From contig CAYSCL010000003.1 of the NCBI GenBank assembly GCA_964429545.1, positions 1-45,749 of the forward strand: a stretch of DNA of 45,749 bases. The letters are read 5' to 3'. The notes below the pieces were generated by a model. That model made no database searches. It was not told where the DNA came from and was given only the letters and a program-made list of their open reading frames with translations. Made by a program: the position numbers and the translations under genes. Source of the stretch: Candidatus Woesearchaeota archaeon. GTDB taxonomy: Archaea > Nanobdellota > Nanobdellia > Pacearchaeales > GW2011-AR1. Numbering within the stretch: the first letter of the stretch is position 1; each line of letters opens with the position of its first letter. Shown piece by piece: positions 6,781 to 41,212 of the stretch.

Positions 6781-6809
6781 AATATATTCGTCTTTGGGAT
6801 TAAATAGTT
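6781..6809 (+). promoter_or_regulatory. Conserved upstream block (copy A) with TATA-like AATATATT
   Basis: aatatattcgtctttg-N4-ttaaatagtt lies about 47 nt before the ATG at 6828. The same 16-mer and 10-mer recur at 19009..19037. Confidence 0.45.
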
Positions 6810-6827
6810 TTTTTTGTTGATTTGGTT

Positions 6828-7751
6828 ATGGTTATTAACAATCTTGTGTTAGCTTTTGTATTGATTTTTATTTCAATTTTAATTGCCTCTCCCCTTGTAT
6901 TTTCTCAAGAAATTGTTTCTGATATTTATGAAGTTGATTCTTATAATTTGGGAATTTCAGGAGGGGAAGACACTGATAATCTAACTAGATCAATTTTGTT
7001 AGCTGAACCTGGAACAATTTTCGTTCAAAATGAATATGGAGGAGAAGAATACAGATATCCAGAAGATATTTTGATTATTGAAGGAACTTCTTCTGATGGG
7101 AGCGGATCAGGTGGTGGAGGGGGTGGCGGAGCAGGAGGTGGCGGAGGATGTATAACTAGTTTAGATTGTGAAAATGGTTTGCATTGTTTAAATGGTGTTT
7201 GTTTAAGATTATTTAATTTAACCATAAATAGAATTAATTCTCCAATTGAAAAGAATGGCTCATTTGAAGTGGTTTATGAAATTGAACCTTTATTCAATCC
7301 GGTTGAAGAAATATATGTTCAGGGATTAGTTTTTGATACAGGAGAAAATGTAATTTCTTTGGCTGAAGAAAATTTGTCTTTGAATAGGAATGAAGCTGTT
7401 GAATTGGTGAAAAAAATACCTGTCCCTTTGAATATAGAATCTGGGCCCCACAATTTTAGTATTAGAGCAATTTATTTGAATTTGTCTCAAAGTGATCAGA
7501 AAAATTATTTTTTAAGTGTCAGGGATGAAAATATTAGAGTTCGTAAACAAAGAGATTTAGATTTAATTATTGGATTTACAATTTTTTCTATTTTTATCTT
7601 GGTTGGTTTAGCATATTTAATAAGTTACTATATTAAAAATAAAGATGAAATTGTTTTCAAATTGGCATCATTTTTTAGTAATTTAGGTGAAAAAATAAAA
7701 ATTAAATGGAGGGAATTTATTTTATGGATAAGAAGAAAATTATCGTTGTGA
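6828..7751 (+). CDS. Exported Gly-run/Cys-containing protein with C-terminal TM anchor (first gene of surface operon)
   Basis: N-terminal hydrophobic signal (VLAFVLIFISILIASPLVFS), the GSGSGGGGGGGAGGGGG linker, a CITSLDCENGLHCLNGVC knot, then a beta-rich domain and the TM helix LIIGFTIFSIFILVGLAYLISYYI. Confidence 0.6.
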   Translation: MVINNLVLAFVLIFISILIASPLVFSQEIVSDIYEVDSYNLGISGGEDTDNLTRSILLAEPGTIFVQNEYGGEEYRYPEDILIIEGTSSDGSGSGGGGGGGAGGGGGCITSLDCENGLHCLNGVCLRLFNLTINRINSPIEKNGSFEVVYEIEPLFNPVEEIYVQGLVFDTGENVISLAEENLSLNRNEAVELVKKIPVPLNIESGPHNFSIRAIYLNLSQSDQKNYFLSVRDENIRVRKQRDLDLIIGFTIFSIFILVGLAYLISYYIKNKDEIVFKLASFFSNLGEKIKIKWREFILWIRRKLSL

Positions 7752-8356
7752 TTTTTTTTATTTTGATTTTTATTGGAGTTTTCATATCTGCACAAGAAAC
7801 AGAGGATTATATTAGTTCATTTGTGGAAAAACAAGGAATAGAAAAAAATTCTATAAAAAATATTTCTGAAATAAATAGAAGCAGTTTTCCTAAACAAATC
7901 TTGATTTCAAATATCGAGGAGAATAATGTTGGGATTTATGAAGTTGAATATTCTGAAGAGGGGATTGATAGAAATTTATTTGTTCTTAGTTATGGCACTC
8001 AAGAAATTGAAGAAGCAGAAACAAGTTTTATGGAAGGGAATTATAATTATTTAACTTTTGAAGGCCAAGAAGGAATTATTGGAGAATATTTAATGGTGGA
8101 TTATGGAAGCATAGTTGGTTTTTCAAGTTCTGTTTCTTTTTCGGGAGTTGGAAAAGTTGGAATTGAAATATACAAAAATGGAAATCCTCTTGGTTTATTG
8201 AATGAAATTTATTCAGAAGGAACGAATTATGATTATGAATTGCAATCAGAAAATATTAATCTTTTCTACCCTGGCGACATAATTTCTGTTTTTGTAAATT
8301 CTAATAATTTAAATATTCAGGAGGTGAATTCTATTGTCAAAGTCAAAATTTATTAA
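7724..8356 (+). CDS. Exported hypothetical protein
   Basis: The ATG at 7724 is preceded by a ggaggg SD-like sequence. Signal peptide MDKKKIIVVIFFILIFIGVFISA. It overlaps the end of the upstream gene. No recognisable family. Confidence 0.55.
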   Translation: MDKKKIIVVIFFILIFIGVFISAQETEDYISSFVEKQGIEKNSIKNISEINRSSFPKQILISNIEENNVGIYEVEYSEEGIDRNLFVLSYGTQEIEEAETSFMEGNYNYLTFEGQEGIIGEYLMVDYGSIVGFSSSVSFSGVGKVGIEIYKNGNPLGLLNEIYSEGTNYDYELQSENINLFYPGDIISVFVNSNNLNIQEVNSIVKVKIY

Positions 8357-9149
8357 AAAAAATTATACTTGGATACTTTTTTTTATTGCAATAGTTTTGA
8401 TAATTTTTGTTTTTTATCAGAATAATTTAACAGGAAGAATCGTTCAGGAAATTTGTAATAAGACAGAAGTTTGTGAAAATGTAACTGTTTTGGAATGTGA
8501 TGAATCTTGTGAAGAAGTTTGTGAAAATGTAACTGAAGAGGTTTGTTCTATTGAAATTGTTGAGACTTGTAACGAGGAATGTGTTGAAGAAAACAATGAA
8601 ACCATTTGTGGAGATGTTTGTTTTGAAGAAGAAATTGAAAATTGTAGTGAACAAACAATTGAAGTTTGTGAAAACGTTTGTGTGGAAGTCAATTGCACTG
8701 AAAGTATTATTGAAAATTGTAGTTTCCAAGAAATTTGTTATGAGGTTGAAATTAATGTTACTAATGAAACAATTAGTGAACCTATTCAAGAACCTGAAGA
8801 AGAGCCATCTCCTTCTCTTGAAGATACATTTAGGGAGGAAGTAACAGGAATACAAGAGATAAGAAAGCCAGAGGGAGAAGAAACAATAAGTTTAACTCAA
8901 CAAGAAATTTTTAACTTAGTTGCAGAAACTGGAGAGGGCGAAGTTAGAGTTACAAAATCTGAAGTGAAAGGCCGTCTTCTTATTTTAAGATTTGAAATTG
9001 GAAATTATTGGGTGGAAAAAGCTTATTATTATCCTCAAGAAAATTTAAATCAAAAAATTGAAAATGATAAAGTTGAATGGGTTAGAAAAATAATTGGAAT
9101 TAATAATCGTGAAATTCAAATAGTTAAAAAAGAGGAATTTTTGACATAA
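8334..9149 (+). CDS. Exported acidic Cys-rich repeat protein (E-[VI]-C / CENV repeats)
   Basis: The TTG start is 7 nt after a perfect aggaggtg SD. An N-terminal TM helix is followed by 16 Cys in about 105 aa, nearly all in an E/V/I-C context, with many N-x-T/S sequons. The DNA repeat gtttgtgaaaatgtaactg occurs twice. Confidence 0.65.
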   Translation: MSKSKFIKKNYTWILFFIAIVLIIFVFYQNNLTGRIVQEICNKTEVCENVTVLECDESCEEVCENVTEEVCSIEIVETCNEECVEENNETICGDVCFEEEIENCSEQTIEVCENVCVEVNCTESIIENCSFQEICYEVEINVTNETISEPIQEPEEEPSPSLEDTFREEVTGIQEIRKPEGEETISLTQQEIFNLVAETGEGEVRVTKSEVKGRLLILRFEIGNYWVEKAYYYPQENLNQKIENDKVEWVRKIIGINNREIQIVKKEEFLT

Positions 9150-9889
9150 TGAAATTGAAATTGTTTTTTATTTTGGTTTTGTTATTTGTTTCTTTGATTA
9201 GTGCAAACACAAATATTGCATTATCAGATCAAGGAACTGGCGTTAGAGTTAAAGCTACTGGGGCAATAGTTTCATCTGGCGAAATAACAATTTCAATTTA
9301 TGATAATTTGACTGGAGGTAATTTGATTTATTCTGAAACTTTTAATAATGGAATTAGGAATGGTAGGTGGAATGTTATGTTGGGTGAAAATCCGAATTTT
9401 CCTTTGAGACTAATTTTTGGTAAAAAATATTTTAGGGATTATTCAATAAATGGGGTTGATATAGATTTTAGGGATTATTCTGGTGCCGTGGTTGAAAGAC
9501 AATTTTTTTATTCTCCTTTGGGAAGTTTGGCAGATAGTAAAATTGTTGGAACTACAAATTCTACACATTCTGGAAATATAAGTAATGGATCTTTGGTTGG
9601 TTATTCGGCAGCAAATAAAATTTGTAATGATGAATATCCTGGAAGTCATTTTTGTTTAAAATCTGAAATACTCTCTACAATTGCTGCAGGCGATTATAAT
9701 TATTCGGGATATCCTTGGTTCCAAAATGGCCCTCCTGGTTATACTGCTAATTCAAATGATTGTAATGGTTGGACAAGTTCTAGTGGAGATTATTTGGGAC
9801 CATTTTGGAATTGGGAATTGAATGCACAAGCGGGAGCTGCTTTTTTGACTCCATGTAGTCAAGTAAAAGATTTGATGTGTTGTGGTTAA
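9149..9889 (+). CDS. Exported protein with C-terminal endostatin/DUF1554-like (C-type-lectin-fold-like) 4-Cys domain
   Basis: TAATG overlap with the upstream gene and a signal peptide. The C-terminal pattern GYSAANKIC..GSHFCLKSEI ... NDCNGWTSSSG ... PCSQVKDLMCC resembles the Cys spacing of endostatin/DUF1554. This is from memory, not searched. Confidence 0.5.
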   Translation: MKLKLFFILVLLFVSLISANTNIALSDQGTGVRVKATGAIVSSGEITISIYDNLTGGNLIYSETFNNGIRNGRWNVMLGENPNFPLRLIFGKKYFRDYSINGVDIDFRDYSGAVVERQFFYSPLGSLADSKIVGTTNSTHSGNISNGSLVGYSAANKICNDEYPGSHFCLKSEILSTIAAGDYNYSGYPWFQNGPPGYTANSNDCNGWTSSSGDYLGPFWNWELNAQAGAAFLTPCSQVKDLMCCG

Positions 9890-9890
9890 A

Positions 9891-12800
9891 ATGATAAAAA
9901 AAATATTATTAATTTTTGGAATTGTTCTTCTTACTTTTAGTTTTGTTAGTTCTGCAACTCTTTTAGTTAATGATCCAGTTTCTTGTCCTAGTGCAGATGA
10001 CACTGTTTTTCCAGGTGTTTCTTGTGCACCGGATGACATTTGTGGTGATGATGGTGGTAGCCCCCTTTGTTTAGATACTTCTGCAATTTCTGTTCCTTCT
10101 CCTGCAACAACGACCTCTAATCCTGGCTTACCTAGTCCTGGTTTTGGAGTTGATTGTTATAATGTTGGTAGCTCATGTGCAAGTAATATTCTTTGTCAAA
10201 GAGATTCTGCTTGTTATAATGTTAATAGATTGACACAATGTACTGATTGGGGGGTTTCTCAATGTGAAAATTGTATTTCTGGATATACTTATTGTGATGG
10301 AAGTTTTACAGATGGGAATGGTTGTGAAATTGATATTGGAACAACTTCTTACCCAGGAGAATCTAGTGCAGTTTATGATGCAGTTTGTTCGCCACAGTGT
10401 TCCTCTGGTTATTTAGATTGTGATGCGGATTTGGGAACTTCTGGTACAGGTTGTGAAATTCAAATAGGAGTTACTTCATTTGGAACAGCGAATGCAGTTT
10501 ATTCTACTTGTACAACTGCGATATGTGAATCTGGTTGGATGGCTTGTGAAGGCGATACAGCAACAGCGGATGGATGTAATTATCAAATTAGTTCTTCTTG
10601 TACAACAGCGGATGGAAAGCCGGGAACTTGGCAATCTGGATGTTCTTGTCAGGAATTAGCTCAGGAAAATTTTGTTACAAATACTTTAGCAAAAGGTTGG
10701 GGAGATTATTTGTTATGGGGAGAGCAGTGGAATCCGAATGGTTGGTTAATGAATTTAACTACAATAAATGGTAATTCCATTGGAATTGATAATGAAAGTT
10801 GTATTGTTTTTTCTGATGGTAGTCGTCAATGTAACGGTTCTTATGTTTCAGGAGGGGTTTCTTCTGATTCTGTTAATTTTTCTAATTATACTAATTGGTG
10901 GGCAGGAGTTTCTGGTTGGTCAAATAATTGGTTTATACAAAATGGCGATAATTTGGATTTCAATTCAACTAGGTTGGATCAACTTTATGTTCAACAGGGA
11001 GGAGATAATATTACGGGAAGATACACTTTTGATGGTAGTTGGATTAATGGAGGAGTTAGTATAGATTCTGGAGATATTTTTGCTCAGAGATTGTATGTAT
11101 ATAATGTAACTTCTTTGGCCGTAAATAATCTCAATATTAATGGTAGCTTGATTCCTCAAGTAGGTTTTGATGATACTTTTGATATAGGTTCTCCAAGTTT
11201 AAGATGGTCCAATGGATATTTTGCAAATGATATTTATATTGGTGGAGAAAGTATAGAAACTAGATTAAGTGCAATGAATTATAATTTTTCAAATGGTTTG
11301 TCTGAAAATGGAGGAACTGTTGAGTTGGGAGGAGAAGTTTCAGGATATGAAATTCTGAATAATGCAACCAACAATTACTTACAAATAAATAATTATCAAG
11401 ATAAGGGCCATGCATTTTATTCAATAATTAGTGATTATTATGATGGGAGAATTGCTCAATTTGATATTCAGGATAGTTTAATTAATTTTCAAACTGAATT
11501 AAGTCCTAATGAAATAGCAACGATTCAGTTAGATGGGGGATCTTTGGGTTTAACTACAGAGAATTATTCTCTTGGTTTTTCTCCATCCAGCGGAGCCATT
11601 TTTCTAGATAAGAATAGTGTTACCTTAGGCATACAGTATTTTTCAGATTATTCATCAAATTATACTAATCGTTCATTGGTTGATAAGGAATATGTTGATT
11701 TGGCTGTTTCTACTTCGTTAGGAGGATTAGAATTTGTCCCATATACTGGTGCAACACAAAATGTTGATTTGGGATCAAATGCAATAATTGCAAAAAATTT
11801 TGATGTTTCAGATAATAATAATCTGAAGATTGGAGCTGATGCAGGATATCAGAATACAGGAAATTATATGACTGCAGTGGGTTTTAATGCAGGACGTTCA
11901 AATTCTGGATTGCATTTAACAGCTTATGGTCAAGCTGCTGGTTATTTAAATTCAGGAGATAATATTTTAGCTATAGGCTCAAATGCAGCTCAACAAAATC
12001 AAGGAGAATTTTCTTCATTTTTTGGGAGATATTCAGGTTATTTGAATCAAGGAAATGGTTCTGTGGGTATCGGTGAAGGTTCTTTAAGGAGTAATTCTGG
12101 AAACAATGTTATTGGTATCGGATATGAAGCTGGAAGAGATAACACTTTGTCTAATCAATTTATCGTTAGACAAAATAATGTTAATTCTGTCCCTTTAATT
12201 CAAGGCGATTTTGCAACAGGCCAAATTAATGCAACTGATTTTTGTACTTATTCAGGGAATTGTTTGAGTAATGTTAGTGGTGGAGAAGATACTTCTAATT
12301 TAGTTCCTTATACTGGCGCAACACAGGATGTTGATTTAGGAAATAGAATAATTAATTCTGGAAATATTTATACAAGCAACCTTTTTGCAGAAATTAATGC
12401 AGTTGTTTCTATTGGGTATAATGCAGGAAATAATAATCTTGGTTCATCTTCTACAATGGTGGGAGCCCTTTCTGGATTAAATAATAAAGGTATAGCTTTA
12501 ACAGCTTTTGGTCTTGATTCGGGTTCTGAGAATGAAGGGAATTGGTCTACTTTTATTGGGGCAACTGCAGGACAGTTCAACAAAGGAAATAGTGTGGTTG
12601 CTTTGGGTTATGATGTTGGAATTAATAATTTAGCAAATAATTCAATATACCTTGGAAATAATGTTGGGCAAGATAATTCTATAAGTAATAGATTGATGAT
12701 AGATATTGAAAATACTAGTATTCCCCTAATTGATGGAAGATTTGATGCAGATATTTTAACAATTAATGGTGATTTGAATGCGACAGGGGATATTTGTATT

Positions 12801-14717
12801 ACTGGGGGAAATTGTTTGAGTGATGTTAGCAGCAGCGGCGATACTTCTAATTTAGTTCCTTATACTGGTGCAACACAGGATGTTGATTTGGGAAATAATA
12901 ATTTTGAGGCAAATAATTTTTATACAAGTGAAAGCAATTTATCCGTATATGTTGGAAATTTAATCACTCCTTCTTTGGAATTTAATGGAGTTACTGCAGT
13001 TGGATATTGGGCGGGAGGAAGCAATACAGCTGGTTTGGTAACTGCAGTTGGAGCAACTGCAGGATTAAATAATCAGGGAGGGGGTTTGACTTCTTTGGGT
13101 TATGCTGCGGGATCTCAAAATACAGGAGAAAATGTTATTGCGGTTGGATCAAGGGCTGGACAATTCAATGATGGAAATAGTGGCGTTTTTGTTGGAACAG
13201 ATTCTGGATGGAATAGTTCTGGGCTTGGAGTTACGGCAATAGGGCACGAATCTGGATATTATAATAGTGAAAGATTACTAACTGCCGTTGGAACTCAAGC
13301 AGGATATGAAAATTCTGGAGATAGAGTTGATGTTTTTGGAGTTTCTGCAGGAGGAAATAACATTGGAGATTATGTGGTATCCATTGGTGCAAACTCAGGT
13401 ATTTTTAATGAAGGTAATAATTCTGTCTTTGTTGGAAGTCTTGCAGGCCAATCGAATTTAGGAAATGATAATGTATTTATTGGAGCATTTAGTGGTTCTT
13501 CCTTGGCGGGTAACTATAATATTGGAATTGGCTCTTATGCATATAATATAGTTTCTGGAAATTATAATATAGGTATAGGATATAGCGCACTAACCTCAAG
13601 TACGGGAAGTAGAAATATTGGAATTGGTGGGCAAGCACTTTATAATAACGGAGGAGACAATGTAACTGCAATTGGAGATAATGCAGGATATGAAAATGCT
13701 GGAACTGGAGATAGGAATGTTTTTATTGGAAATGGTGCAGGATATCAAAATACTGCTGGAGATATTGTTGCTATTGGTTATTTTGCAGGAAGAGGCAATT
13801 CTGGATATCAAAGCACTTTAATTGGAAATAATGTTGGTTATAATAGTGATGGTTATGGATTAACAGCTGTTGGTTATCAGTCAGCTTATAATAGTAGTTG
13901 GTCAGATAATTTGGTTGCAATTGGACATGATGCAGCTTATGGAAACTCTGGAACAACTACAACTGCTGTAGGATATTGGTCAGCAAGAGGAAATAAAGGT
14001 GATGCTTTTACAGGTTTAGGTTATTATGCAGGTTGGAACAATCAAGGTAATTCTAGTACTTTTGTTGGATCAAATGCTGGATTAGGAAATACAAGAAATG
14101 ATGTAACTTCTGTTGGTTATAATGCAGGATATAACAATATCGGTGTTGCTTTAACCTCTTTAGGAAATGAAGCAGGATATAGTCAAGAAGGAGACAATAA
14201 TATTTTTATTGGTAGTGAAACAGGATGGATAAATGAAGGAGACAATGTAATTGCAATAGGGGATGGAGCAGGCTATGGAAATGCAGGCAATGATTTAATT
14301 TTGATTGGTAATGGAGTGGTTAATCAGAATAATGTGGGAAATAATTCTATCTTTATTGGGCATGATTCAGGAGTTAATAGTGAAGTTGATAGGGTTTTAG
14401 CTATAGGTTGGGAAGTTGCATTAGATATGGAAGGAACAAATAATATAGCTATTGGGGATCGTTCTGGATGGTTTAGTCTTGCTAATGATTCTATTTATAT
14501 TGGCCCATATTCTGGAACAGGTAATACAATTAATGAAAGATTAATGATTGATAATATTGATACAAACACTCCCCTAATTGATGGAAGATTTGATGCAGAT
14601 ATTTTAACAATTAATGGTGATTTGAATGTTACTGGTAATTTAAATGTTACAGGCAACATATATTTAGCTGGATGTATTGTAATTGAAGGCAATCAAACGT
14701 TGGGAACTTGTGTTTAG
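9891..14717 (+). CDS. Giant (1,608 aa) exported modular protein: Cys-rich N-domain plus three G-x-x-A-G-x-x-N-x-G solenoid modules with tail-fibre-like junctions
   Basis: The ATG lies 2 nt after the upstream stop, followed by the signal peptide MIKKILLIFGIVLLTFSFVSSA. The Cys-rich region has repeated C.SGY..CD....G.GCEI.IG.TS units. Long arrays follow, e.g. AVGFNAGRSNSG/AYGQAAGYLNSG. The junction motifs VPYTGATQ(D/N)VDLG (x3) and PLIDGRFDADILTINGDLN (x2, plus one degenerate copy) recur. Confidence 0.8.
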   Translation: MIKKILLIFGIVLLTFSFVSSATLLVNDPVSCPSADDTVFPGVSCAPDDICGDDGGSPLCLDTSAISVPSPATTTSNPGLPSPGFGVDCYNVGSSCASNILCQRDSACYNVNRLTQCTDWGVSQCENCISGYTYCDGSFTDGNGCEIDIGTTSYPGESSAVYDAVCSPQCSSGYLDCDADLGTSGTGCEIQIGVTSFGTANAVYSTCTTAICESGWMACEGDTATADGCNYQISSSCTTADGKPGTWQSGCSCQELAQENFVTNTLAKGWGDYLLWGEQWNPNGWLMNLTTINGNSIGIDNESCIVFSDGSRQCNGSYVSGGVSSDSVNFSNYTNWWAGVSGWSNNWFIQNGDNLDFNSTRLDQLYVQQGGDNITGRYTFDGSWINGGVSIDSGDIFAQRLYVYNVTSLAVNNLNINGSLIPQVGFDDTFDIGSPSLRWSNGYFANDIYIGGESIETRLSAMNYNFSNGLSENGGTVELGGEVSGYEILNNATNNYLQINNYQDKGHAFYSIISDYYDGRIAQFDIQDSLINFQTELSPNEIATIQLDGGSLGLTTENYSLGFSPSSGAIFLDKNSVTLGIQYFSDYSSNYTNRSLVDKEYVDLAVSTSLGGLEFVPYTGATQNVDLGSNAIIAKNFDVSDNNNLKIGADAGYQNTGNYMTAVGFNAGRSNSGLHLTAYGQAAGYLNSGDNILAIGSNAAQQNQGEFSSFFGRYSGYLNQGNGSVGIGEGSLRSNSGNNVIGIGYEAGRDNTLSNQFIVRQNNVNSVPLIQGDFATGQINATDFCTYSGNCLSNVSGGEDTSNLVPYTGATQDVDLGNRIINSGNIYTSNLFAEINAVVSIGYNAGNNNLGSSSTMVGALSGLNNKGIALTAFGLDSGSENEGNWSTFIGATAGQFNKGNSVVALGYDVGINNLANNSIYLGNNVGQDNSISNRLMIDIENTSIPLIDGRFDADILTINGDLNATGDICITGGNCLSDVSSSGDTSNLVPYTGATQDVDLGNNNFEANNFYTSESNLSVYVGNLITPSLEFNGVTAVGYWAGGSNTAGLVTAVGATAGLNNQGGGLTSLGYAAGSQNTGENVIAVGSRAGQFNDGNSGVFVGTDSGWNSSGLGVTAIGHESGYYNSERLLTAVGTQAGYENSGDRVDVFGVSAGGNNIGDYVVSIGANSGIFNEGNNSVFVGSLAGQSNLGNDNVFIGAFSGSSLAGNYNIGIGSYAYNIVSGNYNIGIGYSALTSSTGSRNIGIGGQALYNNGGDNVTAIGDNAGYENAGTGDRNVFIGNGAGYQNTAGDIVAIGYFAGRGNSGYQSTLIGNNVGYNSDGYGLTAVGYQSAYNSSWSDNLVAIGHDAAYGNSGTTTTAVGYWSARGNKGDAFTGLGYYAGWNNQGNSSTFVGSNAGLGNTRNDVTSVGYNAGYNNIGVALTSLGNEAGYSQEGDNNIFIGSETGWINEGDNVIAIGDGAGYGNAGNDLILIGNGVVNQNNVGNNSIFIGHDSGVNSEVDRVLAIGWEVALDMEGTNNIAIGDRSGWFSLANDSIYIGPYSGTGNTINERLMIDNIDTNTPLIDGRFDADILTINGDLNVTGNLNVTGNIYLAGCIVIEGNQTLGTCV
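12288..12344 (+). repeat. Module-junction DNA repeat, copy 1 (encodes DTSNLVPYTGATQDVDLGN)
   Basis: 55 of 57 nt are identical to 12840..12896 by manual alignment. Confidence 0.85.
12722..12780 (+). repeat. Module-end DNA repeat, copy 1 (encodes PLIDGRFDADILTINGDLN)
   Basis: 59 nt are identical to 14570..14628 by manual comparison. Confidence 0.85.
12840..12896 (+). repeat. Module-junction DNA repeat, copy 2
   Basis: Partner of 12288..12344. The two differences are synonymous third positions (ggc/ggt, tta/ttg). Confidence 0.85.
14570..14628 (+). repeat. Module-end DNA repeat, copy 2
   Basis: Partner of 12722..12780. Confidence 0.85.
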
Positions 14718-14852
14718 GATAAAATAATTTTTTATTTATCATTTTAAATTTTCTTTTATGTTTTTTTCTAAATAATTATTAATAATAAAATATTGTAATT
14801 AATATTGTCTTTAACGTTGGAATATAATCGTTCGTAAAAAGATATAAAAAAG

Positions 14853-15506
14853 ATGGATGGAAACAATTTAATAATGCTTAATCTGGATTTGGATATTCCA
14901 AATCTATGGGAAAATAATTTAGTTCAGAATTTTCCAGATACAAAATTTATAATTAGGCATGCCAATGTTTATTCCGATAATTTTATTTCTGGTTTGTTGA
15001 AGCTTGAAAATGAAAATTTTCAAAGAATTAGAAGATTTATGAGAAAAAATTACCCCAAAATTTCTTTTGATGTTTTTCACAAAAACTCTAATTTATATTA
15101 TTATTTGGCTCCGGATAAATTAATACCAAAAATCATTAAAAATTCTCGGGCAATTTTAAGTTGGCCGGTTGAATTTCTTGAAAAAGATAAACGATTAAAA
15201 TTTATTTTGAGGGATATTGATATTGAAAAGGTTATGGAACCAATAGAAGAAGAAGGAATAGATATTACAAAGTTTTCTAAAATTAAAGTTGATTTTAATT
15301 TGGATGAAATTTTAACTCCTAAACAAAAAGAAATTTTGGAACCTTCATTGAAACATGGATATTATGAATTTCCAAAGAAAATTAATTTAAATGAATTATC
15401 TAGAAAAATAGGTGTTAGTCCAAGTACACTTTGTGTTCATTTACAAAAAATTGAAAGTAAGATTTTAAATTCCAATTATAGGGAACTATTTTTTAAAATA
15501 ATCTAA
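14853..15506 (+). CDS. Bat-type (HTH_10) transcriptional regulator
   Basis: The C-terminal LTPKQKEILEPSLKHGYYEFPKKINLNELSRKIGVSPSTLCVHLQKIESKIL matches the bacterio-opsin-activator HTH_10 consensus (LT.rQ.e.L..A...GY...PR...l.eLA..lgiS.st...HLR.ae.K). Confidence 0.7.
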   Translation: MDGNNLIMLNLDLDIPNLWENNLVQNFPDTKFIIRHANVYSDNFISGLLKLENENFQRIRRFMRKNYPKISFDVFHKNSNLYYYLAPDKLIPKIIKNSRAILSWPVEFLEKDKRLKFILRDIDIEKVMEPIEEEGIDITKFSKIKVDFNLDEILTPKQKEILEPSLKHGYYEFPKKINLNELSRKIGVSPSTLCVHLQKIESKILNSNYRELFFKII

Positions 15507-18078
15507 ATCTTTTAATAAAATTAAAAAGTTTTTGAAATAAGTTTAATATTTTTTGAAAGAAAGTTATTTTTGGTTCTCCTATTTCTATAGTTTTATTTGT
15601 TTGTTCTTCAAACAAATGCTTTATTGCAATTGTTTCATTTATTTCTTTCATAAAAATATCTGCTTTTTCATTTTCGATTGATAAAAGAATTATTTCTAAA
15701 TCATATGTTTTGTCATTGTCTAGATTTATCTTTCTTGATTGATATTGATATAGTATAATGTTTATTGGAGTGCTGTATATGGTTATGTTTGCTTTGTTTG
15801 TGTTTAGTGAATGCAATTTTAATTGATGGTTATTATTTTTTATTTTAAATGAAGTTATTGTATTTTGATCTATATTTTTTGTTGTACCTTCAATTATTTC
15901 TTGTCCTGTTATTTCTATTGTTTTTTGGATTGTTGAAGATGTTGGAGTAGAACTTGAACTTCCTCCGCCGTTGTTTTCAACTACTTCTGTATAAATTGTT
16001 AATTTGTAAGTTGCTGAGGTATTAGTGTTATTTGCTAAATCTGTGCAAGTGACATTCCAATGATAAATCCCGTTAGAAAGTGTTTGTGTAAAAGAAGAAT
16101 ATTTTTGGTTATTTATTGTAAGGTTACAATAATCTTTGTTTGATTCAGTTTGATTATATTGGAATGTATGTGTTTTTGTTTGAGTTCTTGTGTTGTTTGT
16201 TGGTGAAGTTAAATTTATTTTTGGTTTAGTTATATCATAGGTTATTGTATTGTTTTTTGTTTGATGTTGTTCTGAAAGGTTGTTTATTGCAAGGCAATTA
16301 TATTTGTAAGTTGTTTCATTAGTTAAATTGTAATTAAAAATTGAATAATTTAGATTTCCTGAAGTGTTTTTAGTTTCATTGTGAATAAGGGTGTTATTTT
16401 CATAGATGAACAAAGTCATATTAGATAATTCTTTTGTAGTTTCTGCTGAACAATTAAATTCTGTTTCATTTTGGTTTGTATATGTGTTGTTTTCTGGACT
16501 TATAATTTGTGTTTGAATTGGTGATGAAGTTAAAAAAAAAGTTTTTGTTTGTGCGTTTGAATTATTGTCTTTTGCTATACAGGACCAATTGTAAACTTGA
16601 TCTATTGTTGTGTTTATGTATGTTGTGAGTGAGGTTTGATTTGCTGATATGTTTTTTACAAGTGATGTTAAATTGTAAATTTCAATTGTTAAATTTGCAA
16701 ATTGTAATAAGTCAGTTGCATTGCAAGTGAAAGATTGATTTTGAGGTTCTCTTAATGAATTATTTGGTGGAGACATGTAGGTTATGTTTGGGGCTTGTTC
16801 GTCAGCGTAGAGGATTGTTTGATAAATTTGTATTTTTGAAAAGTTTTCATTTGTTTCACCCGTATCATTGATTGGTTTTCCAGCATTTATTAAAATGGTT
16901 TCGATTTCATTTGGAGTTAAAGTTTTATTTGATTCTAACTTTTTATATTGATTTAAGATTGCTATTGTCCCAGAAACGTGGGGAGTAGACATAGAGGTTC
17001 CCGATACATCACAGTAGTCTGTCCCCGTTCCACATTCAGATAATATGTTTCCAGAAGGATTTTGAATCATTGTCGAATTTATATTTGTTCCTGGTGCTGA
17101 AATAATGTCTAAAAAATTCTGGTGCCTAAATGCATAGGAAGCATATGATTCATCTTTATTTATTGCAGTAACCCTTATTGAATTTTCAATACATGCTGGA
17201 CTAGCTATTCCTGCTATTGGATTTGTATAAATTGTATTATCTGTATTTCCAGTTGCTGTTGCAACTGAGATGTTTTGATTAACTGCATTATTAATACTTG
17301 AAGATAAATAATCTCCATTACAATAGTTTGAATATTGGCCTCCTCCCAAACTCATAGATATTACAGAGATATTGTAATTTTCTTGATTATTTATACACCA
17401 TTGAATTCCTGCTTCTATGTCGTTATCCCAACAACCACTTGTGTTACAAACAGTAACTGAAGCAATTTTTGCTCCAGGTGCTACTCCTTTAATTGAGCCA
17501 TTTGCAGCCACAATTCCTGCAACATGGGTTCCATGTCCATTATTATCCCCTAAAGAACAATTTGAAAAACAATTTGCTCCGGAAATACAATCGATGTTAC
17601 ATGTTACATTCTGTCCTTGCAAATCAGGATGAGTAAAATCTACACCTGTGTCTAAAACGCATATTGTTTGGCCTTTCCCAGTTAAATTTTGGTTATTTAT
17701 TTGTATTTGTTGCGCCTCTGTTCCGTTAATTAAAGGAACCGATTCTTGAAGAAATAAATATTTTTTTTCAATAATTTCAACAGATTCAACTTCGAGATTA
17801 TTTTCCAATTCCATTATTTCTTCTTCTGTCAATGTTGCTGAAAATTTTCCCTCGAATTGATGTCTTATTTTTTCTTTAGGAATTATTTGCGTTTTAGTAG
17901 AAAACAATTCTTTTTGATTTTCTTCTTTGTATTTTATCATCACTCGAACAGATTCTGATTTTTCTAATTCATTTATTATTTTTTTATCTATTTTTGGATG
18001 TTTATCTTCGGTAGTCGAAATAAAAGTTATGGAAAAAATTATCAATAAAATAACTAAGTAATATATGCCTCTTTTCAT
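15493..18078 (-). CDS. Secreted subtilisin-like serine protease (S8) with propeptide and three Ig-like, sequon-dense C-terminal repeats
   Basis: Signal peptide and an I9-like propeptide. Catalytic triad contexts are VLDTGVD, HGTHVAGIV and SGTSMSTPHVSG. Three repeats of about 90 aa follow (P.I....P.N....F.C.A....N.T..IY...Y.W.C.A.D), then a GGGSSSSTPTSS linker. Confidence 0.9.
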   Translation of the reverse strand: MKRGIYYLVILLIIFSITFISTTEDKHPKIDKKIINELEKSESVRVMIKYKEENQKELFSTKTQIIPKEKIRHQFEGKFSATLTEEEIMELENNLEVESVEIIEKKYLFLQESVPLINGTEAQQIQINNQNLTGKGQTICVLDTGVDFTHPDLQGQNVTCNIDCISGANCFSNCSLGDNNGHGTHVAGIVAANGSIKGVAPGAKIASVTVCNTSGCWDNDIEAGIQWCINNQENYNISVISMSLGGGQYSNYCNGDYLSSSINNAVNQNISVATATGNTDNTIYTNPIAGIASPACIENSIRVTAINKDESYASYAFRHQNFLDIISAPGTNINSTMIQNPSGNILSECGTGTDYCDVSGTSMSTPHVSGTIAILNQYKKLESNKTLTPNEIETILINAGKPINDTGETNENFSKIQIYQTILYADEQAPNITYMSPPNNSLREPQNQSFTCNATDLLQFANLTIEIYNLTSLVKNISANQTSLTTYINTTIDQVYNWSCIAKDNNSNAQTKTFFLTSSPIQTQIISPENNTYTNQNETEFNCSAETTKELSNMTLFIYENNTLIHNETKNTSGNLNYSIFNYNLTNETTYKYNCLAINNLSEQHQTKNNTITYDITKPKINLTSPTNNTRTQTKTHTFQYNQTESNKDYCNLTINNQKYSSFTQTLSNGIYHWNVTCTDLANNTNTSATYKLTIYTEVVENNGGGSSSSTPTSSTIQKTIEITGQEIIEGTTKNIDQNTITSFKIKNNNHQLKLHSLNTNKANITIYSTPINIILYQYQSRKINLDNDKTYDLEIILLSIENEKADIFMKEINETIAIKHLFEEQTNKTIEIGEPKITFFQKILNLFQKLFNFIKRFRLF

Positions 18079-18174: not shown

Positions 18175-18468
18175 ATGAAAGAATGGAAGCTTGAAGATTT
18201 GAATGAAGAGTATAATTTAGATTTTGATAAAATTGTAAATTTGATTCAGGAAGAGAAAGCTAAAAGGGTTTTATTGCAATTTCCTGATGGTTTGAAACAG
18301 TATTCTAAAGCTATTGTTGATTATTTGAAAGAAAAAACTTCTGCTGAATTTATTATCTATTTGGGAACTTGTTTTGGTGCTTGCGATACTCCATTGGGAA
18401 TGGAAGACAAGGTTGATTTGATGATTCAGCTTGGACATAATTCTCTTATGCCTAATTATTTGAACTGA
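18175..18468 (+). pseudogene. dph2: Truncated dph2 (diphthamide synthesis radical-SAM enzyme), N-terminal ~97 aa only
   Basis: AKRVLLQFPDGLKQYSKAIVDYLKE...YLGTCFGACDTP...DLMIQLGHNS aligns with the N-terminus of archaeal Dph2 as I recall it. A stop follows at aa 97, and a minus-strand gene begins 32 nt later. No continuation appears in any + frame. Confidence 0.65.
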
Positions 18469-19008: not shown

Positions 19009-19037
19009 AATATATTCGTCTTTGTCGTTAAATAGTT
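19009..19037 (+). promoter_or_regulatory. Conserved upstream block (copy B)
   Basis: aatatattcgtctttg-N4-ttaaatagtt lies about 47 nt before the ATG at 19056. Same block as 6781..6809. Confidence 0.45.
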
Positions 19038-19055
19038 CTTTTGATTTTTTATTTT

Positions 19056-19139
19056 ATGAAAAAGTGTAAAAAATGTGGGAAAGAACTTTGTAAAAAATGT
19101 GGGGGCGGATGTAAATGTGCTCCTTGTAAATGTAAATAG
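19056..19139 (+). CDS. Cys-rich micro-protein (27 aa, 8 Cys), metallothionein-/zinc-knuckle-like
   Basis: ATG..TAG reads MKKCKKCGKELCKKCGGGCKCAPCKCK. It is below the ORF-track cutoff and is paralogous to the next ORF. Confidence 0.5.
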   Translation: MKKCKKCGKELCKKCGGGCKCAPCKCK

Positions 19140-19148
19140 TTAATAAAA

Positions 19149-19322
19149 ATGGATGAAGATAAAAAAACAAATAAGCCGGAAGGCTATTGTGTAGAATGTG
19201 GCCACATATTATGTCCTAATTGTGGAAAATGTTGCCATTGTGGATCATGTAATTGTAATCATTGCCATCCTAAAGAAGAAAGTGATGAAACTGAAGAAGA
19301 AATACCCGTTAATTATGCTTGA
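19149..19322 (+). CDS. Cys/His-rich micro-protein (57 aa, 10 Cys, 4 His) with acidic tail
   Basis: MDEDKKTNKPEGYCVECGHILCPNCGKCCHCGSCNCNHCHPKEESDETEEEIPVNYA. It shares C-x2-C-G-x3-C-x2-C-G-x2-C-x-C-x2-C-x-C with the 27-aa ORF. Confidence 0.55.
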   Translation: MDEDKKTNKPEGYCVECGHILCPNCGKCCHCGSCNCNHCHPKEESDETEEEIPVNYA

Positions 19323-19327: not shown

Positions 19328-20032
19328 TCACAACCAACCATTAAGTAAAGCTACTCCTACCAAGAATAATAAAATTCCTGCGATTAAGTGTAATTTCTTT
19401 ATGTTTCTTTCTTTCCAACCTGAAACTTCATCTACTTTGCTAAATCCAAAATAGACCAAGAGAACTATTGCAAGCATTGGTATTATAAACAATAAATTAT
19501 AATATGCTAACCATGGAAGTGCCCCCAATATTCCTAATTCAGCTAATAAACCTGAAGCTATAATGTATGGTCCCATTGTACAAGGCAGTAAGAAAAGTGT
19601 AACAACAAAACCAATTATGAATGCTCCACTTGGTGAAGTTATTTTTTTTATTATTTTTTTTACTTTTGGTCTCATAAATAAAGGCATTTCTGTTGCGAAG
19701 GATCCTTTTTTGTAATTAAAATAATCTTTTATATTTAATCCTCCTAAAACCATCGCCAATATTGCTAGTCCTTTGTAAACATAAATTGAATTTTCTCTTA
19801 AGAAATTAGCAAATATTTTGAAGAATTGAATAATAATTGTGCCATATACTAAATATCCAATATATATTGAAGAAATAAAGGCTAATCCTGCAAAAAGAAC
19901 ATTCTTTTTTTTCTTAGGATTTTCAATTAAAATAGAAACCAAAACCATTGTTAGAACTGCTATTGCGCAAGGGTTTACTGAATCTGCTAGAGCCAAAGCA
20001 GTTATTCTCCCAAAACTCAAAATGTCTGCCAT
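19328..20032 (-). CDS. ccdA: CcdA/DsbD-family transmembrane thiol-disulfide electron transporter
   Basis: A 6-TM profile with the two hallmark membrane-embedded Cys motifs, DSVNPCAIAVL and LLPCTMGPY. Confidence 0.7.
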   Translation of the reverse strand: MADILSFGRITALALADSVNPCAIAVLTMVLVSILIENPKKKKNVLFAGLAFISSIYIGYLVYGTIIIQFFKIFANFLRENSIYVYKGLAILAMVLGGLNIKDYFNYKKGSFATEMPLFMRPKVKKIIKKITSPSGAFIIGFVVTLFLLPCTMGPYIIASGLLAELGILGALPWLAYYNLLFIIPMLAIVLLVYFGFSKVDEVSGWKERNIKKLHLIAGILLFLVGVALLNGWL

Positions 20033-20033
20033 T

Positions 20034-20375
20034 TTAACAATTAGTTAACTCCTTTAATTTATTTATTGATTTGACTCCAGTGTATTGTTTTTCTTTTATT
20101 ATCCACGTTGGAGTTGCTAAAATTCCTTCACATTTTTCAGTTTCATAAAAACAATCCACCATTTCTATATATTTTATGTTTTCTCCAAACAACTCTTCTT
20201 GTGTTTTACAGTGGGAACAACCTAATTGAGTGTAAAGTGTTGCTTGTTCTCCAATGCATTGAACTATTTCTTCATCTGTTTCTGGAGAAGGTTTTGTTAA
20301 TGAAAAAAATGAAATTAAAATTATTCCTAAAATAATTATAGACATTACAATTCTGTTTTTTGTCACCGCTTTCAT
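20034..20375 (-). CDS. Membrane-anchored extracytoplasmic thioredoxin-like protein (CxxC)
   Basis: N-terminal TM anchor. YTQLGCSHCKTQEELFG...TPTWII resembles the Trx-like domain fused to bacterial VKOR (WCPHC..QKELFG...YPTW). It lies 1 nt from ccdA. Confidence 0.7.
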   Translation of the reverse strand: MKAVTKNRIVMSIIILGIILISFFSLTKPSPETDEEIVQCIGEQATLYTQLGCSHCKTQEELFGENIKYIEMVDCFYETEKCEGILATPTWIIKEKQYTGVKSINKLKELTNC

Positions 20376-20382
20376 TTTAATT

Positions 20383-20661
20383 TTAATCTTTGTTTATTTT
20401 TATAGATTTCCCATTTACAATTGCATTTGAAACTTTTTTTATTGCAGATGTTAATATTCTGGATAAAGTTGGTTGTGAAACTTCCATTTTTTTAGCTGCT
20501 TCATTTTGAGGTAAATTTTTTGTATAAATTAATCTCAGTGCTTCAAATTCTGGCATTTCTAATTCAATTTCTTCTAAATCAGATGCAGGAATTCCTGCTG
20601 GCTTAAAATGATTTGTATTTGGTTTTCCCCTTACTCTTCTGTTTTTACATGGCCTTGGCAT
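20383..20661 (-). CDS. DUF134 (UPF0251) putative DNA-binding protein
   Basis: MPRPCKNRRVRGKPNTNHFKPAGIP...EALRLIYTKNLPQNEAAKKMEVSQPTLSRIL is the family N-terminal signature plus a sigma-70-region-4-like HTH. Confidence 0.85.
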   Translation of the reverse strand: MPRPCKNRRVRGKPNTNHFKPAGIPASDLEEIELEMPEFEALRLIYTKNLPQNEAAKKMEVSQPTLSRILTSAIKKVSNAIVNGKSIKINKD

Positions 20662-20696
20662 AAAATAATAAAAATAAAAATAATTTATAAATGTTT

Positions 20697-20710
20697 TGAA
20701 TGTGTATTCA
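20697..20710. promoter_or_regulatory. Palindrome TGAAT-N4-ATTCA, copy 1 (candidate operator)
   Basis: tgaatgtgtattca sits just upstream of the TATA-like tttataaa (20684..20691) of the DUF134 gene. Confidence 0.4.
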
Positions 20711-20711
20711 T

Positions 20712-20870
20712 TTAATCACAATTTCTTCTTCTACAGCCCCGCTTACCAAAGCCTCTTCCTTGGCCTCTTCCTCTTGGAAGTTCTTGTGGTTCTTTTCCTT
20801 CACAGTTCCCCATTTGTCTTCCTGTTTTTGGGCCGTTTCCGTTTGGTCCTGTTCCGTCTTTATTTGGCAT
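20712..20870 (-). CDS. DUF5320-family small protein (52 aa)
   Basis: The internal Met gives MPNKDGTGPNGNGPKTGRQMGNCEG...RGRGQGRGFGKRG, matching the MPxxDGTGPxGxGPxTGR signature. The listed 97-aa ORF adds an implausible AT-rich N-extension. Confidence 0.7.
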   Translation of the reverse strand: MPNKDGTGPNGNGPKTGRQMGNCEGKEPQELPRGRGQGRGFGKRGCRRRNCD

Positions 20871-20895
20871 TTTTTGTTTTTCTCCTAATTTAATT

Positions 20896-20911
20896 ATGAA
20901 TAAGTATTCAT
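20896..20911. promoter_or_regulatory. Palindrome ATGAAT-N4-ATTCAT, copy 2
   Basis: atgaataagtattcat lies between a TATA-like element (about 20917..20924) and the DUF5320 start. Confidence 0.4.
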
Positions 20912-20928
20912 TATACTTTATAAATGTT

Positions 20929-20944
20929 ATGAATTTGTATTCAT
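20929..20944. promoter_or_regulatory. Palindrome ATGAAT-N4-ATTCAT, copy 3
   Basis: atgaatttgtattcat. The context tataaatgtt(a/t)tgaat(t/g)tgtattcat is repeated at 20687..20711. Confidence 0.4.
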
Positions 20945-21119
20945 AATTATTTAATTCATTTTGTTCGTAATTGATAATTAAATTATCTGTTCTGCTGTAG
21001 AGCATTGAGAATTGGAGAGTTGTGAAAGGGAGTTAATAAAAAACTAACAATAATTATTTATTTCATTAAGAATATAAAAATAAAAATAAAAAATAAGAAG
21101 TAAAAATTTAATGACTTTA

Positions 21120-21443
21120 TTAGTAATCAGGTAGTTCTTCTTTTGAAGGTGCTTCGGCTTTTTGTTCTTCTGCTTGCGCATCAGCCATTGCTGCTTCATC
21201 TAGAGTTTTTTGATCTTCTGGGAGTGCTTCTTTCATGTCTTCATCGTTGACAGAATTAATCATTTCCTTGAATTTTTGCCAATCTTTAGCTAAAATTCTT
21301 ACACCTGATTTTGTAAATCCTGTGTATCTATCAGAAGTCACAAATTCTCTAATTGTGAATCCCCGTTTATCTGCAAAGTCATCGATTCTAAGTACGATTT
21401 CTGTTGTATCGTTTTTTGGTAGTTTTCCGATGTCTTTTTCCAT
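21120..21443 (-). CDS. PC4/YdbC-like single-stranded DNA-binding protein with acidic C-terminal tail
   Basis: GFTIREFVTSDRYTGFTKSGVRILAKDWQKFKEMINSVND aligns with the PC4 core (IDIREYW....KPGRKGISL..EQW..L...I..ID). The tail ends EELPDY. Confidence 0.55.
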   Translation of the reverse strand: MEKDIGKLPKNDTTEIVLRIDDFADKRGFTIREFVTSDRYTGFTKSGVRILAKDWQKFKEMINSVNDEDMKEALPEDQKTLDEAAMADAQAEEQKAEAPSKEELPDY

Positions 21444-21517: not shown

Positions 21518-22633
21518 TTAATTCTCGTAATTATATAGCACAGTAATATTATAATGGCTATCTCTTACGCTTGCATGAGGAACCAACACATTTCCTCTTT
21601 GTATTTCAATTTCAGTCTCAAAATTCTTCATTTTTTCTTCTTCAAAAATCTCGTTATATTGTCTTCTTTCAATTAATTTGTCAAAATCATCCAATGATTC
21701 CAATAAAAGCAAATCCATATTATACTCTGAATTGAAAATAATTTTTATATTGACAGGATAATTATACTCAAAACCTGCAGGATATAATTCATAAGGAATA
21801 AAATAATCTTCATTTAATTGATCATTTATTTTCAATTCCAAATTCCCAAAAACTGCAACAGTATAACAAATAATTCCTTCAATATTTTCTTTACATGATA
21901 CCCCAACACCAACACTTTCCCATAAAATTGGTTTATCTGGATCAAGCACTGTTGAACGATGACCTGGACTTGAAATCCAACCTTCTACAACATCAGACAC
22001 AAATTCTTCCTCGCTATAAAAATAATTTTGTGATAAAACCTCAGAAGCAGAAAAATAAAAAATTTCTTTTTCTTCAAATCTTCTACTTAAATCATAGCCT
22101 TCTTCAGGGGTATGTGCAAATAAATCGGTTTCTTTAATGTTTTCCGCATAATCTTGTGCAATTCCATCTAAAAATTCATTTCTTTTTACTTTTTCTATCC
22201 AATTTTCTTTTCTTTTCGTATTTATTAAATCAAAAATCTCATTCCGAATATTTTTTTCATTAATATTGGCTAAATCTAATTGTGAAGAAATAATGTCTTC
22301 TTCACTGAAAGTAAAAGTTAAATAATAAGAATCATAATCTGCTTCATACATATCATAATTAATCGAATAATTTTTCCCTTCATTATCTATGCCTACAAAT
22401 ATTAATTTTCCTGGACCTAATTTTTTTTCAGCAATTTTTATTAATCCATTATCTGTAGAACCCATAAAAATATCATTAAAATATATGTCCCCCTCTACTA
22501 AAAATTCATCATTCAAATAAAATTCAAGTTCATATTTTACGGGAATTAAAGTTATTATTAATCCTATAAATAGTAACCCCACAAAAATCATGCCTGCATA
22601 CATAAAAATTTTTTCAAATTTCTTCTTCATCAA
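21518..22633 (-). CDS. Membrane-anchored CAP/SCP/PR-1-like domain protein
   Basis: N-terminal TM helix. The CAP signature is GWISSPGHRSTVLDP...WESVGVGVSC. Confidence 0.7.
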   Translation of the reverse strand: MMKKKFEKIFMYAGMIFVGLLFIGLIITLIPVKYELEFYLNDEFLVEGDIYFNDIFMGSTDNGLIKIAEKKLGPGKLIFVGIDNEGKNYSINYDMYEADYDSYYLTFTFSEEDIISSQLDLANINEKNIRNEIFDLINTKRKENWIEKVKRNEFLDGIAQDYAENIKETDLFAHTPEEGYDLSRRFEEKEIFYFSASEVLSQNYFYSEEEFVSDVVEGWISSPGHRSTVLDPDKPILWESVGVGVSCKENIEGIICYTVAVFGNLELKINDQLNEDYFIPYELYPAGFEYNYPVNIKIIFNSEYNMDLLLLESLDDFDKLIERRQYNEIFEEEKMKNFETEIEIQRGNVLVPHASVRDSHYNITVLYNYEN

Positions 22634-41051: not shown

Positions 41052-41212
41052 TAAATTTAATGGGAATTATTATTTTTAAATATTGGGATTAGAATGGGAT
41101 AATTTGGATAGTAGAAATTTGGGGTTGGGAAGTGGGAAGGAAGAATTGGATGTTGAAAAAAAGAATACTGGAAATTCCTAAAATTTATATAGTTACAAAA
41201 GTTTAGTTTTTT

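Follow-up and report, generated by a model that had tools for sequence, protein, structure and literature searches.

How do archaea of the DPANN group recognise and hold their partners? Little is known about this, and molecular candidates are all but lacking in the uncultivated Pacearchaeota and Woesearchaeota. The question is raised here by a run of five genes, g1 to g5 (6828-14717, plus strand), within a stretch of 45,749 nt from a Candidatus Woesearchaeota archaeon (contig CAYSCL010000003.1 of assembly GCA_964429545.1; hereafter, the window). A sequence-only reading of this window had proposed that the five genes, the last of which encodes a giant protein resembling a tail fibre, form an apparatus for contact with a host or partner. 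In following up this proposal, we found that the locus is chromosomal and cellular, that its last two genes make up a conserved pair in which a gene for one defined domain is always directly followed by a gene for another, and that the shaft repeats of g5 are homologous to those of phage tail fibres. We consider it rather probable that the operon is a vertically inherited, chromosomal system for a disulfide-rich surface fibre, whose role would probably be adhesive; host contact specifically is less certain than the surface fibre itself.

Five coupled genes encode proteins that look exported

The five open reading frames (ORFs), which begin at 6828, 7724, 8334, 9149 and 9891, overlap or abut throughout. 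The first two share 28 nt (7724-7751), g2 and g3 share 23 nt (8334-8356), g3 and g4 meet in a shared TAATG, and a single spacer base separates the g4 stop at 9889 from the g5 ATG at 9891, so that the coupling described from the letters alone, including the TAATG at 9149 and the near-abutting start at 9891, was borne out. Shine-Dalgarno-like motifs precede g2 (GGAGGG), g3 (GGAGGTGA, 7 nt before its TTG start codon) and g4 (AGAGGA), and there is none upstream of g1, as one would expect of a gene that leads an archaeal operon. A promoter-like element (6781..6830, plus strand) carries the palindrome GAATATATTC about 45 nt before the g1 ATG, and g5 is followed by a T-rich stretch (14718..14790, plus strand; TTTTTTATTT...TTTTCTTTTATGTTTTTTTC), which probably marks the end of the operon and, since archaeal transcription terminates at oligo-T, may act as its terminator. 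Taken together, the tight junctions, the Shine-Dalgarno motifs, the promoter-like element and the T-rich tract give the layout expected of a single archaeal operon.

The element at 6781..6830 is a candidate promoter. It is also found before the g1 homologue of a related genome (L001), a 50-nt repeat of it (D10) recurs before a YgaP-like gene (4690) and a small Cys-rich ORF (19009), and a 16-mer taken from it occurs 11 times where 2.8 occurrences are expected. At 19009-19250, the exact 16-mer AATATATTCGTCTTTG found upstream of g1 also stands before two tiny, extremely Cys-rich ORFs, the first of 27 aa (MKKCKKCGKELCKKCGGGCKCAPCKCK, ATG 19056) and the second of about 57 aa with CxxC motifs; these may be metal-binding peptides, and may have their promoter type in common with the operon.

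All five products carry an N-terminal hydrophobic segment in Kyte-Doolittle windows, in agreement with the claim that each begins with a signal peptide or transmembrane (TM) anchor. Inspection by eye revealed classic (I/V)S(A/S)A-type cleavage motifs in g2, g4 and g5, while the N-terminal segment of g3 looks like an uncleaved anchor. On this hydropathy evidence, all five products look exported or membrane-anchored. None of them reached a Pfam or NCBIfam model, and literature searches returned no description of the operon or of the g4-g5 pair described below, which is in keeping with the earlier statement that the combination matches no named system.

The g4-g5 pair is the conserved unit

The named relatives of the operon proteins come from metagenome-assembled genomes (MAGs) of Nanoarchaeota/Nanoarchaeia, Pacearchaeota and Woesearchaeota. 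The source of the window (G+C 26-36%) is therefore, by sequence, a small-genome DPANN archaeon of the Pacearchaeota/Woesearchaeota type (Nanoarchaeia), in line with the small-genome archaeon that had been suggested. The operon lies between the gene for the translation factor aIF5B and that for an HTH_10 regulator, and the flanks of the window hold cellular genes: tandem short-chain dehydrogenases, an amino-acid permease, the YgaP-like protein, aIF5B, HTH_10, an S8 protease, a diphthamide-synthesis fragment, a DsbD-like protein, PPDK, and SerRS, the last recognised by eye in translation. A scan of the ORFs found no capsid, portal, terminase, integrase, baseplate or sheath gene in the 45.7 kb. 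With the aIF5B/HTH_10 synteny also kept in relatives, the locus is cellular and chromosomal, not viral, as had been argued from the missing virion genes.

The five-gene order itself is retained in relatives, where the order g1-g2-g3-g4-g5 recurs in L001/L008 and in L007 with g4 proteins 48-81% identical to that of the window. In L001/L008 (a 222-kb contig) the order reads aIF5B, a 147-aa ORF, g1 to g5 and HTH_10. Identity between L001 and the window falls from 87% for aIF5B, 81% for HTH_10, 77% for g4 and 68% for the N-terminal head of g5 to 46% for g2, 45% for g3 and 35% for g1, implying that g1-g3 change much faster than their neighbours. The length of g5 also differs, at 1608 aa in the window versus 1381 aa in the close relative L001. 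In L007, g4 is 48% identical to its counterpart in the window.

To describe more distant loci, hidden Markov models (HMMs) were built for g1, g2, g3, the two modules of g4 (N-module and C-module) and the g5 head, and 24 sequences were scanned with them; wider locus searches used a narrow alignment of the C-module (A3). Lineages were defined by clustering C-modules at 90% identity, and were counted where downstream DNA was available. In 11/11 such lineages, a gene with a C-module is directly followed by a gene whose product begins with the head, and the two genes usually overlap or abut. These 11 include loci found through C-module motifs alone (L010, L015-L018, L020 and L021). In L010, L016 and L017 the pair stands directly after the gene for EF-2, without g1-g3. 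The evolutionarily conserved unit is therefore the g4-g5 pair, which is smaller than the five genes.

What follows the head varies widely. The length of head-bearing proteins lies between 449 and 5501 aa (about 470 to 5501 aa for those encoded after a C-module gene), and their shafts and ends differ: those of L006 and L013 contain LVIVD with Peptidase_S74, that of L014 contains discoidin, and in L012 the head lies on a separate 584-aa protein that precedes a 3600-aa LVIVD/S74 giant. Peptidase_S74 is also present in P0004, and in one fusion protein (P0096) the head forms the N-terminus and the C-module the C-terminus. Several paralogous fibre genes are found per genome, and across lineages the N-module, head, shafts and C-terminal modules (C-module, Peptidase_S74, discoidin) have been freely recombined. 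Some relatives of g5 lie in arrays of giant exported proteins (L003 15705-25682, from Nanoarchaeota MAG JAGQJT010000006.1, and L014 1-9961), which include Laminin_G_3 and beta-helix proteins and a 7017-aa LamG protein; surface proteins take up much of these small genomes.

Directly downstream of the operon is a gene for a 217-aa transcription regulator (14853..15506, plus strand) with an HTH_10 domain (PF04967, E 3.4e-16, residues 154-205). It had been read as a Bat-type regulator; the DNA-binding domain was found as claimed, but the sensor domains of Bat were not, there being no match to PAS or GAF and just a weak HVO_0513_N-like match (E 0.049). Since its homologues accompany the operon in two arrangements, downstream in L001 (81% identical) and upstream in L007 (62% identical), a regulatory connection is supported. 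A secreted S8 protease had also been listed downstream, and an exported 861-aa S8 subtilase with Ig-like repeats is indeed encoded there (15493-18078); it lies, however, on the minus strand, convergent with the HTH_10 gene, whose end it overlaps by 14 nt, and it is missing from L001, where HTH_10 is directly followed by the Dph fragment. The protease is thus an unlinked insertion/deletion difference and not a conserved neighbour, and we rejected it as part of the module.

g5 joins a Cys-rich head to a shaft of tail-fibre-type repeats

The 1608-aa g5 protein (9891-14717, plus strand) begins with a signal peptide (residues 1-22) and a Cys-rich head (residues 23-324; together 9891..10862). Of its 32 Cys, 24 fall in residues 32-253, and the head contains three C-x-SG(Y/W)-x-x-C-x(7-10)-GC(E/N) units. 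Homologues of the head (P0001, P0003, P0004 and P0093-98) carry it at the N-terminus in every case, the gene that encodes it always stands directly after one for a C-module, and no phage relatives were found for the head or for the first 565 residues. Middle beta-rich domains (residues 325-605, 10863..11705) follow, with a TGRYTFDGSW...DIGS..RW block and the end NRSLVDKEYVD; P0002 has a block with 57% identity to residues 363-454, and this block is present in P0005 too. The remainder is made up of three solenoid modules. Module 1 (residues 606-795, 11706..12275) starts with VPYTGATQNVDLG, runs through 16-residue repeats and ends in PLIQGDF...C-x5-C; module 2 (residues 796-980, 12276..12830) was modelled with AlphaFold 2 (AF2); and module 3 (residues 981-1608, 12831..14717) has about 35 repeats and a terminal C-x11-C loop before the stop codon. 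Module starts of the form (V)PYTGATQ(D/N)VDLG occur three times, at 617, 806 and 990, the LVDKEYVD motif once, and modules end in PLI(D/Q)G..F...C-x5-C or, at the very end, in C-x11-C. Repeats recur at intervals of 48 nt (16 aa). The architecture read from the translation, a Cys-rich head with three repeat solenoids and an LVDKEYVD junction, was therefore accurate.

The likeness of this shaft to phage tail fibres was confirmed by similarity searches. PHROG profiles of virion-structural and tail-spike proteins matched residues 1202-1319 (phrog_6002, 1e-12; phrog_4636, tail spike, 1e-9), and tblastn with the shaft retrieved 24 phage records, which share 30-37% identity with it (lowest E-value 5e-19). 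These include "chlorovirus glyco repeat" proteins of Tenacibaculum phage, tailspikes annotated as endo-N-acetylneuraminidase and tail-fibre proteins of Roseobacter and Pelagibacter phages, together with matches in a Halorubrum tailed virus and a Methanosarcinales virus. On these matches, the shaft repeats of g5 are homologous to phage tail-fibre repeats. The proteins also have in common their G/N-rich 16-residue repeats and a modular build of N-terminal anchor, shaft and tip, and Peptidase_S74, an intramolecular chaperone, closes the head-bearing relatives of L006, L012 and L013, as it does the nearest phage examples, such as endosialidase-type tailspikes and the "chlorovirus glyco repeat" protein of Tenacibaculum phage pT24. 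They differ in that g5 is encoded on a chromosome with a Sec signal peptide and no virion genes near, in that the Cys-rich head is absent from phages, and in that g5 itself lacks Peptidase_S74 (Pfam). A search with full-length g5 gave at least five matches, repeat words having saturated the candidate list.

The AF2 model of module 2 has a mean pLDDT (predicted local distance difference test) of 58, with a core at 71-88, in which there is a strand every ~16 residues, and disordered junctions below 50. A Foldseek search with it found nothing below E ~7 and matched no solved fold. The shaft is thus predicted to be a beta-solenoid.

Trimeric autotransporter adhesins (YadA/Hep_Hag) had been named as a second point of comparison. 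Like them, g5 is a fibrous, adhesin-like protein with short Gly/Asn/Ala-rich beta repeats, and its homologues P0005 and P0079 carry YadA_head repeats (PF05658). In g5 itself, however, YadA_head/Hep_Hag (PF05658/PF05662) were not matched at E<=0.1, there was no Pfam match to the C-terminal YadA beta-barrel anchor and no hydrophobic or anchor segment at the C-terminus, and its repeats are 16, not 14, residues long; archaea, moreover, have no outer membrane for a beta-barrel anchor. Of the families expected by the sequence-only reading, tail-fibre profiles were therefore matched, but YadA and S74 domains were absent, and we rejected membership of g5 among these adhesins since it has no match to YadA_head, stalk or anchor. 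A C-x9-12-C loop (e.g. GCIVIEGNQTLGTCV) closes g5, P0001, P0002, P0003, P0079, P0083 and P0095, and the internal modules of g5 end in a related C-x5-C (GNCLS) loop; such Cys-closed terminal loops may be a common cap motif.

g4 combines two independently distributed modules

The 246-aa g4 protein (9149..9889, plus strand), which has a signal peptide, was modelled by AF2 with high confidence (pLDDT 92.2) as two domains: an Ig-like beta-sandwich, the N-module (9212-9526), and a C-module (9542-9886). Across 87 homologues of g4, the N-module is present in 57, the C-module in 61 and both in 31, and the two are distributed independently of each other. Many other fibre proteins start with this same N-module, and the viral models closest to it are small, uncharacterised phage beta-sandwich proteins (~115 aa, E 5e-4). 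Two N-module proteins (P0067 and P0073) are labelled 'Patescibacteria group bacterium' by NCBI, so that either the N-module is common to bacteria of the candidate phyla radiation and DPANN archaea, or the bins are mislabelled.

The C-module had been described as a four-Cys domain with an endostatin/DUF1554 lectin fold. The count was wrong, in that six Cys are invariant. As for the fold, Foldseek matched the g4 model to endostatin (1koe, probability 0.98, TM-score 0.44; 1dy1, 0.94), a Leptospira protein (6oe6, 0.95) and 1ixx (0.89), with snake C-type lectins among the matches, but with E-values of just 0.03-0.2 (0.1-0.2 for the endostatin/DUF1554 matches) for a query that was the whole two-domain model. 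By sequence the assignment was negative throughout and was rejected at that level: PF07588/DUF1554 gave no Pfam match to g4 or to 86 homologues, a profile search against PDB gave none for g4, and hhalign against human endostatin (its sequence verified against 1bnl) gave an insignificant probability of 0.25%. The fold suggested from the sequence is thus plausible but not established, and the C-module can be said to resemble endostatin and C-type lectins weakly in its predicted structure. Leptospiral endostatin-like (Len) proteins are adhesins (PMC2387172). To these, the C-module is likened at the level of fold alone, and it differs from the Len/DUF1554 proteins and from the endostatin domain of collagen XVIII/XV in its own pattern of six invariant Cys and in the lack of a Pfam or PDB profile match.

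The C-module is not confined to short proteins such as g4. It also caps collagen-repeat proteins (P0044 and P0090) and proteins made up of an N-module and a shaft (P0026 and P0030). P0044 and P0090 have the six-Cys C-module behind a run of collagen triple-helix repeats, an arrangement which, if the fold assignment holds, parallels that of collagen XVIII, likewise closed by endostatin.

We also considered g4 or g5 as targets of a diversity-generating retroelement. This was rejected, as there were no template/variable repeat pairs with the termini of g4 or g5 and no reverse transcriptase among the scanned ORFs of the window; the C-module is, in addition, highly conserved.

g1, g2 and g3 differ in their reach across lineages

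By ORF and hydropathy, g1 (6828..7751, plus strand) is a type-I membrane protein of 307 aa, in which a signal peptide, an N-domain, a Gly run (residues 91-107), a 4-Cys knot, a beta-rich domain, a TM segment (residues 242-270) and a basic cytoplasmic tail follow one another; the Gly run and Cys knot were as previously described. It shares 35% identity with its homologue in L001 and 27% with that in L007, and in L006 and L013 its HMM also picks out the gene that precedes the g4-like one. In L014, a g1-like anchor recognised by eye lies downstream of the pair, and such membrane anchors are frequent across lineages. Also by eye, an ITG...(D)WIGG-like motif was seen just before the TM segment of g1-like proteins (L013 8318-9996) and again at the extreme C-terminus of a 3119-aa giant fibre (L013 10930-20289), where it might be a sorting or docking signal.

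The exported 210-aa g2 protein (7724..8356, plus strand), with the cleavage motif ISA|QE, is 45-46% identical to its homologues in L001 and L007. A set of 1.84 billion proteins contains 102 clusters of its family when grouped at 50% identity, and a 50-sequence profile found nothing meaningful in Pfam or PDB. The 271-aa g3 protein (8334..9149, plus strand) has an N-terminal anchor and is as acidic and Cys-rich as had been claimed: it contains 16 Cys and 60 D+E (22%), with the acidic 16-Cys region at residues 41-135 and 32 D+E as against 1 K+R across residues 39-140, followed by a conserved C-terminal domain of ~100 aa. Homologues of g3 were found in L001, L007, L008, L009, L015 and L019, and both g2 and g3 are confined to the clade of the window.

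A probable surface fibre and its possible mode of action

These data lead us to favour a surface fibre, built according to the logic of anchor, shaft and tip seen in phage fibres. The N-terminal part (head or N-module) would lie close to the cell and the C-terminus would be distal and bind ligand, an orientation suggested by analogy with phage fibres and with the relatives that terminate in S74. The type-I membrane protein g1 and the N-terminally anchored, acidic, Cys-rich g3 could tether or organise the assembly at the membrane. The strict linkage of C-module and head, together with their fusion in P0096, suggests a physical interaction of g4 with g5, so that the two may act together. Once displayed, the fibre would bind a ligand on a partner cell or particle, and the adjoining HTH_10 protein may regulate the operon. 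The rapid divergence and the exchange of modules are in keeping with proteins exposed to other cells or to viruses.

Several points weigh against a fibre of this kind. The signal peptides were judged by hydropathy alone, so that export is an inferred property; the endostatin/C-type-lectin assignment of the C-module is weak; and the solenoid model, moderately confident in its core alone, matches no solved fold. There is no recognisable membrane or cell-wall anchor in g5, which means that its attachment to the cell is assumed. The related contigs are mostly short, and some of the loci scored with the head HMM had themselves gone into building it. Finally, g2 and g3 are missing from most lineages that have the g4-g5 pair, and the five genes may accordingly not form one machine.

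Could the operon instead encode an envelope scaffold? On that view the membrane stalk g1 would carry g5 as part of a sheath or S-layer-like coat, with g2-g4 as accessory envelope proteins and a mainly structural or protective role, much as SlaA is held by SlaB in the S-layer of Sulfolobales. The operon does resemble SlaA/SlaB in pairing a membrane-anchored stalk with a large exported partner lacking its own anchor, and the topology of g1 (signal peptide, beta-rich ectodomain, C-terminal TM segment) is that of a membrane stalk; all products look exported, moreover, and the position of the pair beside housekeeping genes such as that for EF-2 in some lineages suggests constitutive use. We nevertheless regard a scaffold as unlikely, because S-layer proteins that form a lattice do not resemble head proteins of 449-5501 aa with exchanged shafts and tips, because the shaft has repeats of tail-fibre type and because there are several paralogous fibre genes per genome; no sequence relationship to SlaA/SlaB was found, and the relatives of g5 vary about tenfold in length and swap modules. 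The same shaft repeats, which match phage tail-fibre, tailspike and virion structural proteins, and the Peptidase_S74 chaperone domain of the relatives, typical of tail fibres, would also suit a viral derivation, in which the operon would be what is left of a prophage tail-fibre module, or else a tailocin-like or decoy system that presents fibre proteins to interfere with viruses. That is very improbable given the virion genes missing from the window, the stable aIF5B/HTH_10 synteny across relatives and products with Sec-type signal peptides (by hydropathy). Phage relatives were found neither for the head nor for g1-g4, and a scan of IMG/VR with the close C-module motif gave no match. A provirus origin was rejected on these grounds: flanks without viral genes, IMG/VR without the motif and a head without phage relatives.

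A narrower alternative concerns g4, which might be an assembly factor: a dedicated chaperone or cap outside the cytoplasm that would bind the head while g5 folds or trimerises and would then leave it. Many phage fibres depend on a chaperone of their own from a neighbouring gene, and the strict adjacency of C-module and head genes, often with overlapping stop and start codons, is what one would see for such a partner. Yet the C-module ends long fibres of its own (P0044/P0090 and P0026/P0030) and is fused in cis in P0096, which fits a structural terminal domain better, and the N-module of g4 is the domain with which many other fibre proteins begin; we consider a role in assembly quite improbable.

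Within the surface-fibre reading, a more specific arrangement can be tentatively put forward, though we hold it to be doubtful: the six-Cys C-module and the head might form a plug-and-socket joint, a DPANN-specific and virus-independent counterpart of the joint of phage tail fibres, serving host or partner recognition. In such a joint g4 would be a cell-proximal adaptor, whose Ig-like N-module is seated on the envelope, possibly on g1, while the C-module docks the head of whichever fibre is encoded next. If this were so, Pacearchaeota and Woesearchaeota could show exchangeable fibres, from 450 to >5,000 residues, on a common socket, and proteins with both ends, such as P0096, could polymerise head to tail.

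The locus belongs with modular fibrous surface proteins, to which it adds unannotated domain families and a robust gene-pair signature. Among DPANN archaea, the SPEARE proteins of Nanohaloarchaeota, which combine laminin-G, serine-protease and type III restriction-endonuclease domains with a TM anchor, have been proposed to function in host attachment (PMC6642349). They and g5 are alike in being very large, mostly extracytoplasmic proteins with a proposed attachment role, but the laminin-G, serine-protease and restriction domains and the TM anchor of SPEARE proteins were not found in g5. Four unannotated domain families (head, N-module, C-module and g2) are provided by the operon, the strictly conserved C-module/head gene pair is a search handle across MAGs, and the locus documents a cellular use of tail-fibre-type shaft repeats together with a prokaryotic collagen-plus-endostatin-like arrangement. 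Should the fibre be structural or unrelated to partner contact, it would represent one more family of modular archaeal surface proteins.

Other features of the window

On the minus strand at 19328-20375 lies a gene for a DsbD_2/SfLAP-like membrane protein (234 aa) with an adjoining gene for a 113-aa protein, both of them conserved near the operon in L001 as well (20183-21254); the two could provide thiol-disulfide exchange for exported Cys-rich proteins. A 97-98-aa ORF at 18175-18468 (L001 14978-15274) matches just the first 60/302 positions of Pfam Diphthamide_syn, and since the truncated length is kept in both genomes, it may be a split or degenerate dph2. The minus strand also carries, at 21518-22633, a gene for a 371-aa, likely exported protein with a CAP (cysteine-rich secretory protein) domain (E 4e-9) and, at 694-2193, two tandem 249-aa short-chain dehydrogenase genes, whose DNA identity of 71-78% indicates a recent duplication. 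Finally, an intergenic, G-rich and degenerate tandem array of ~125 nt, with units of 7/14/21/35 nt (e.g. TTAGGGATTAGGAG), was noted at 44650-44796 and also at 41103-41158.

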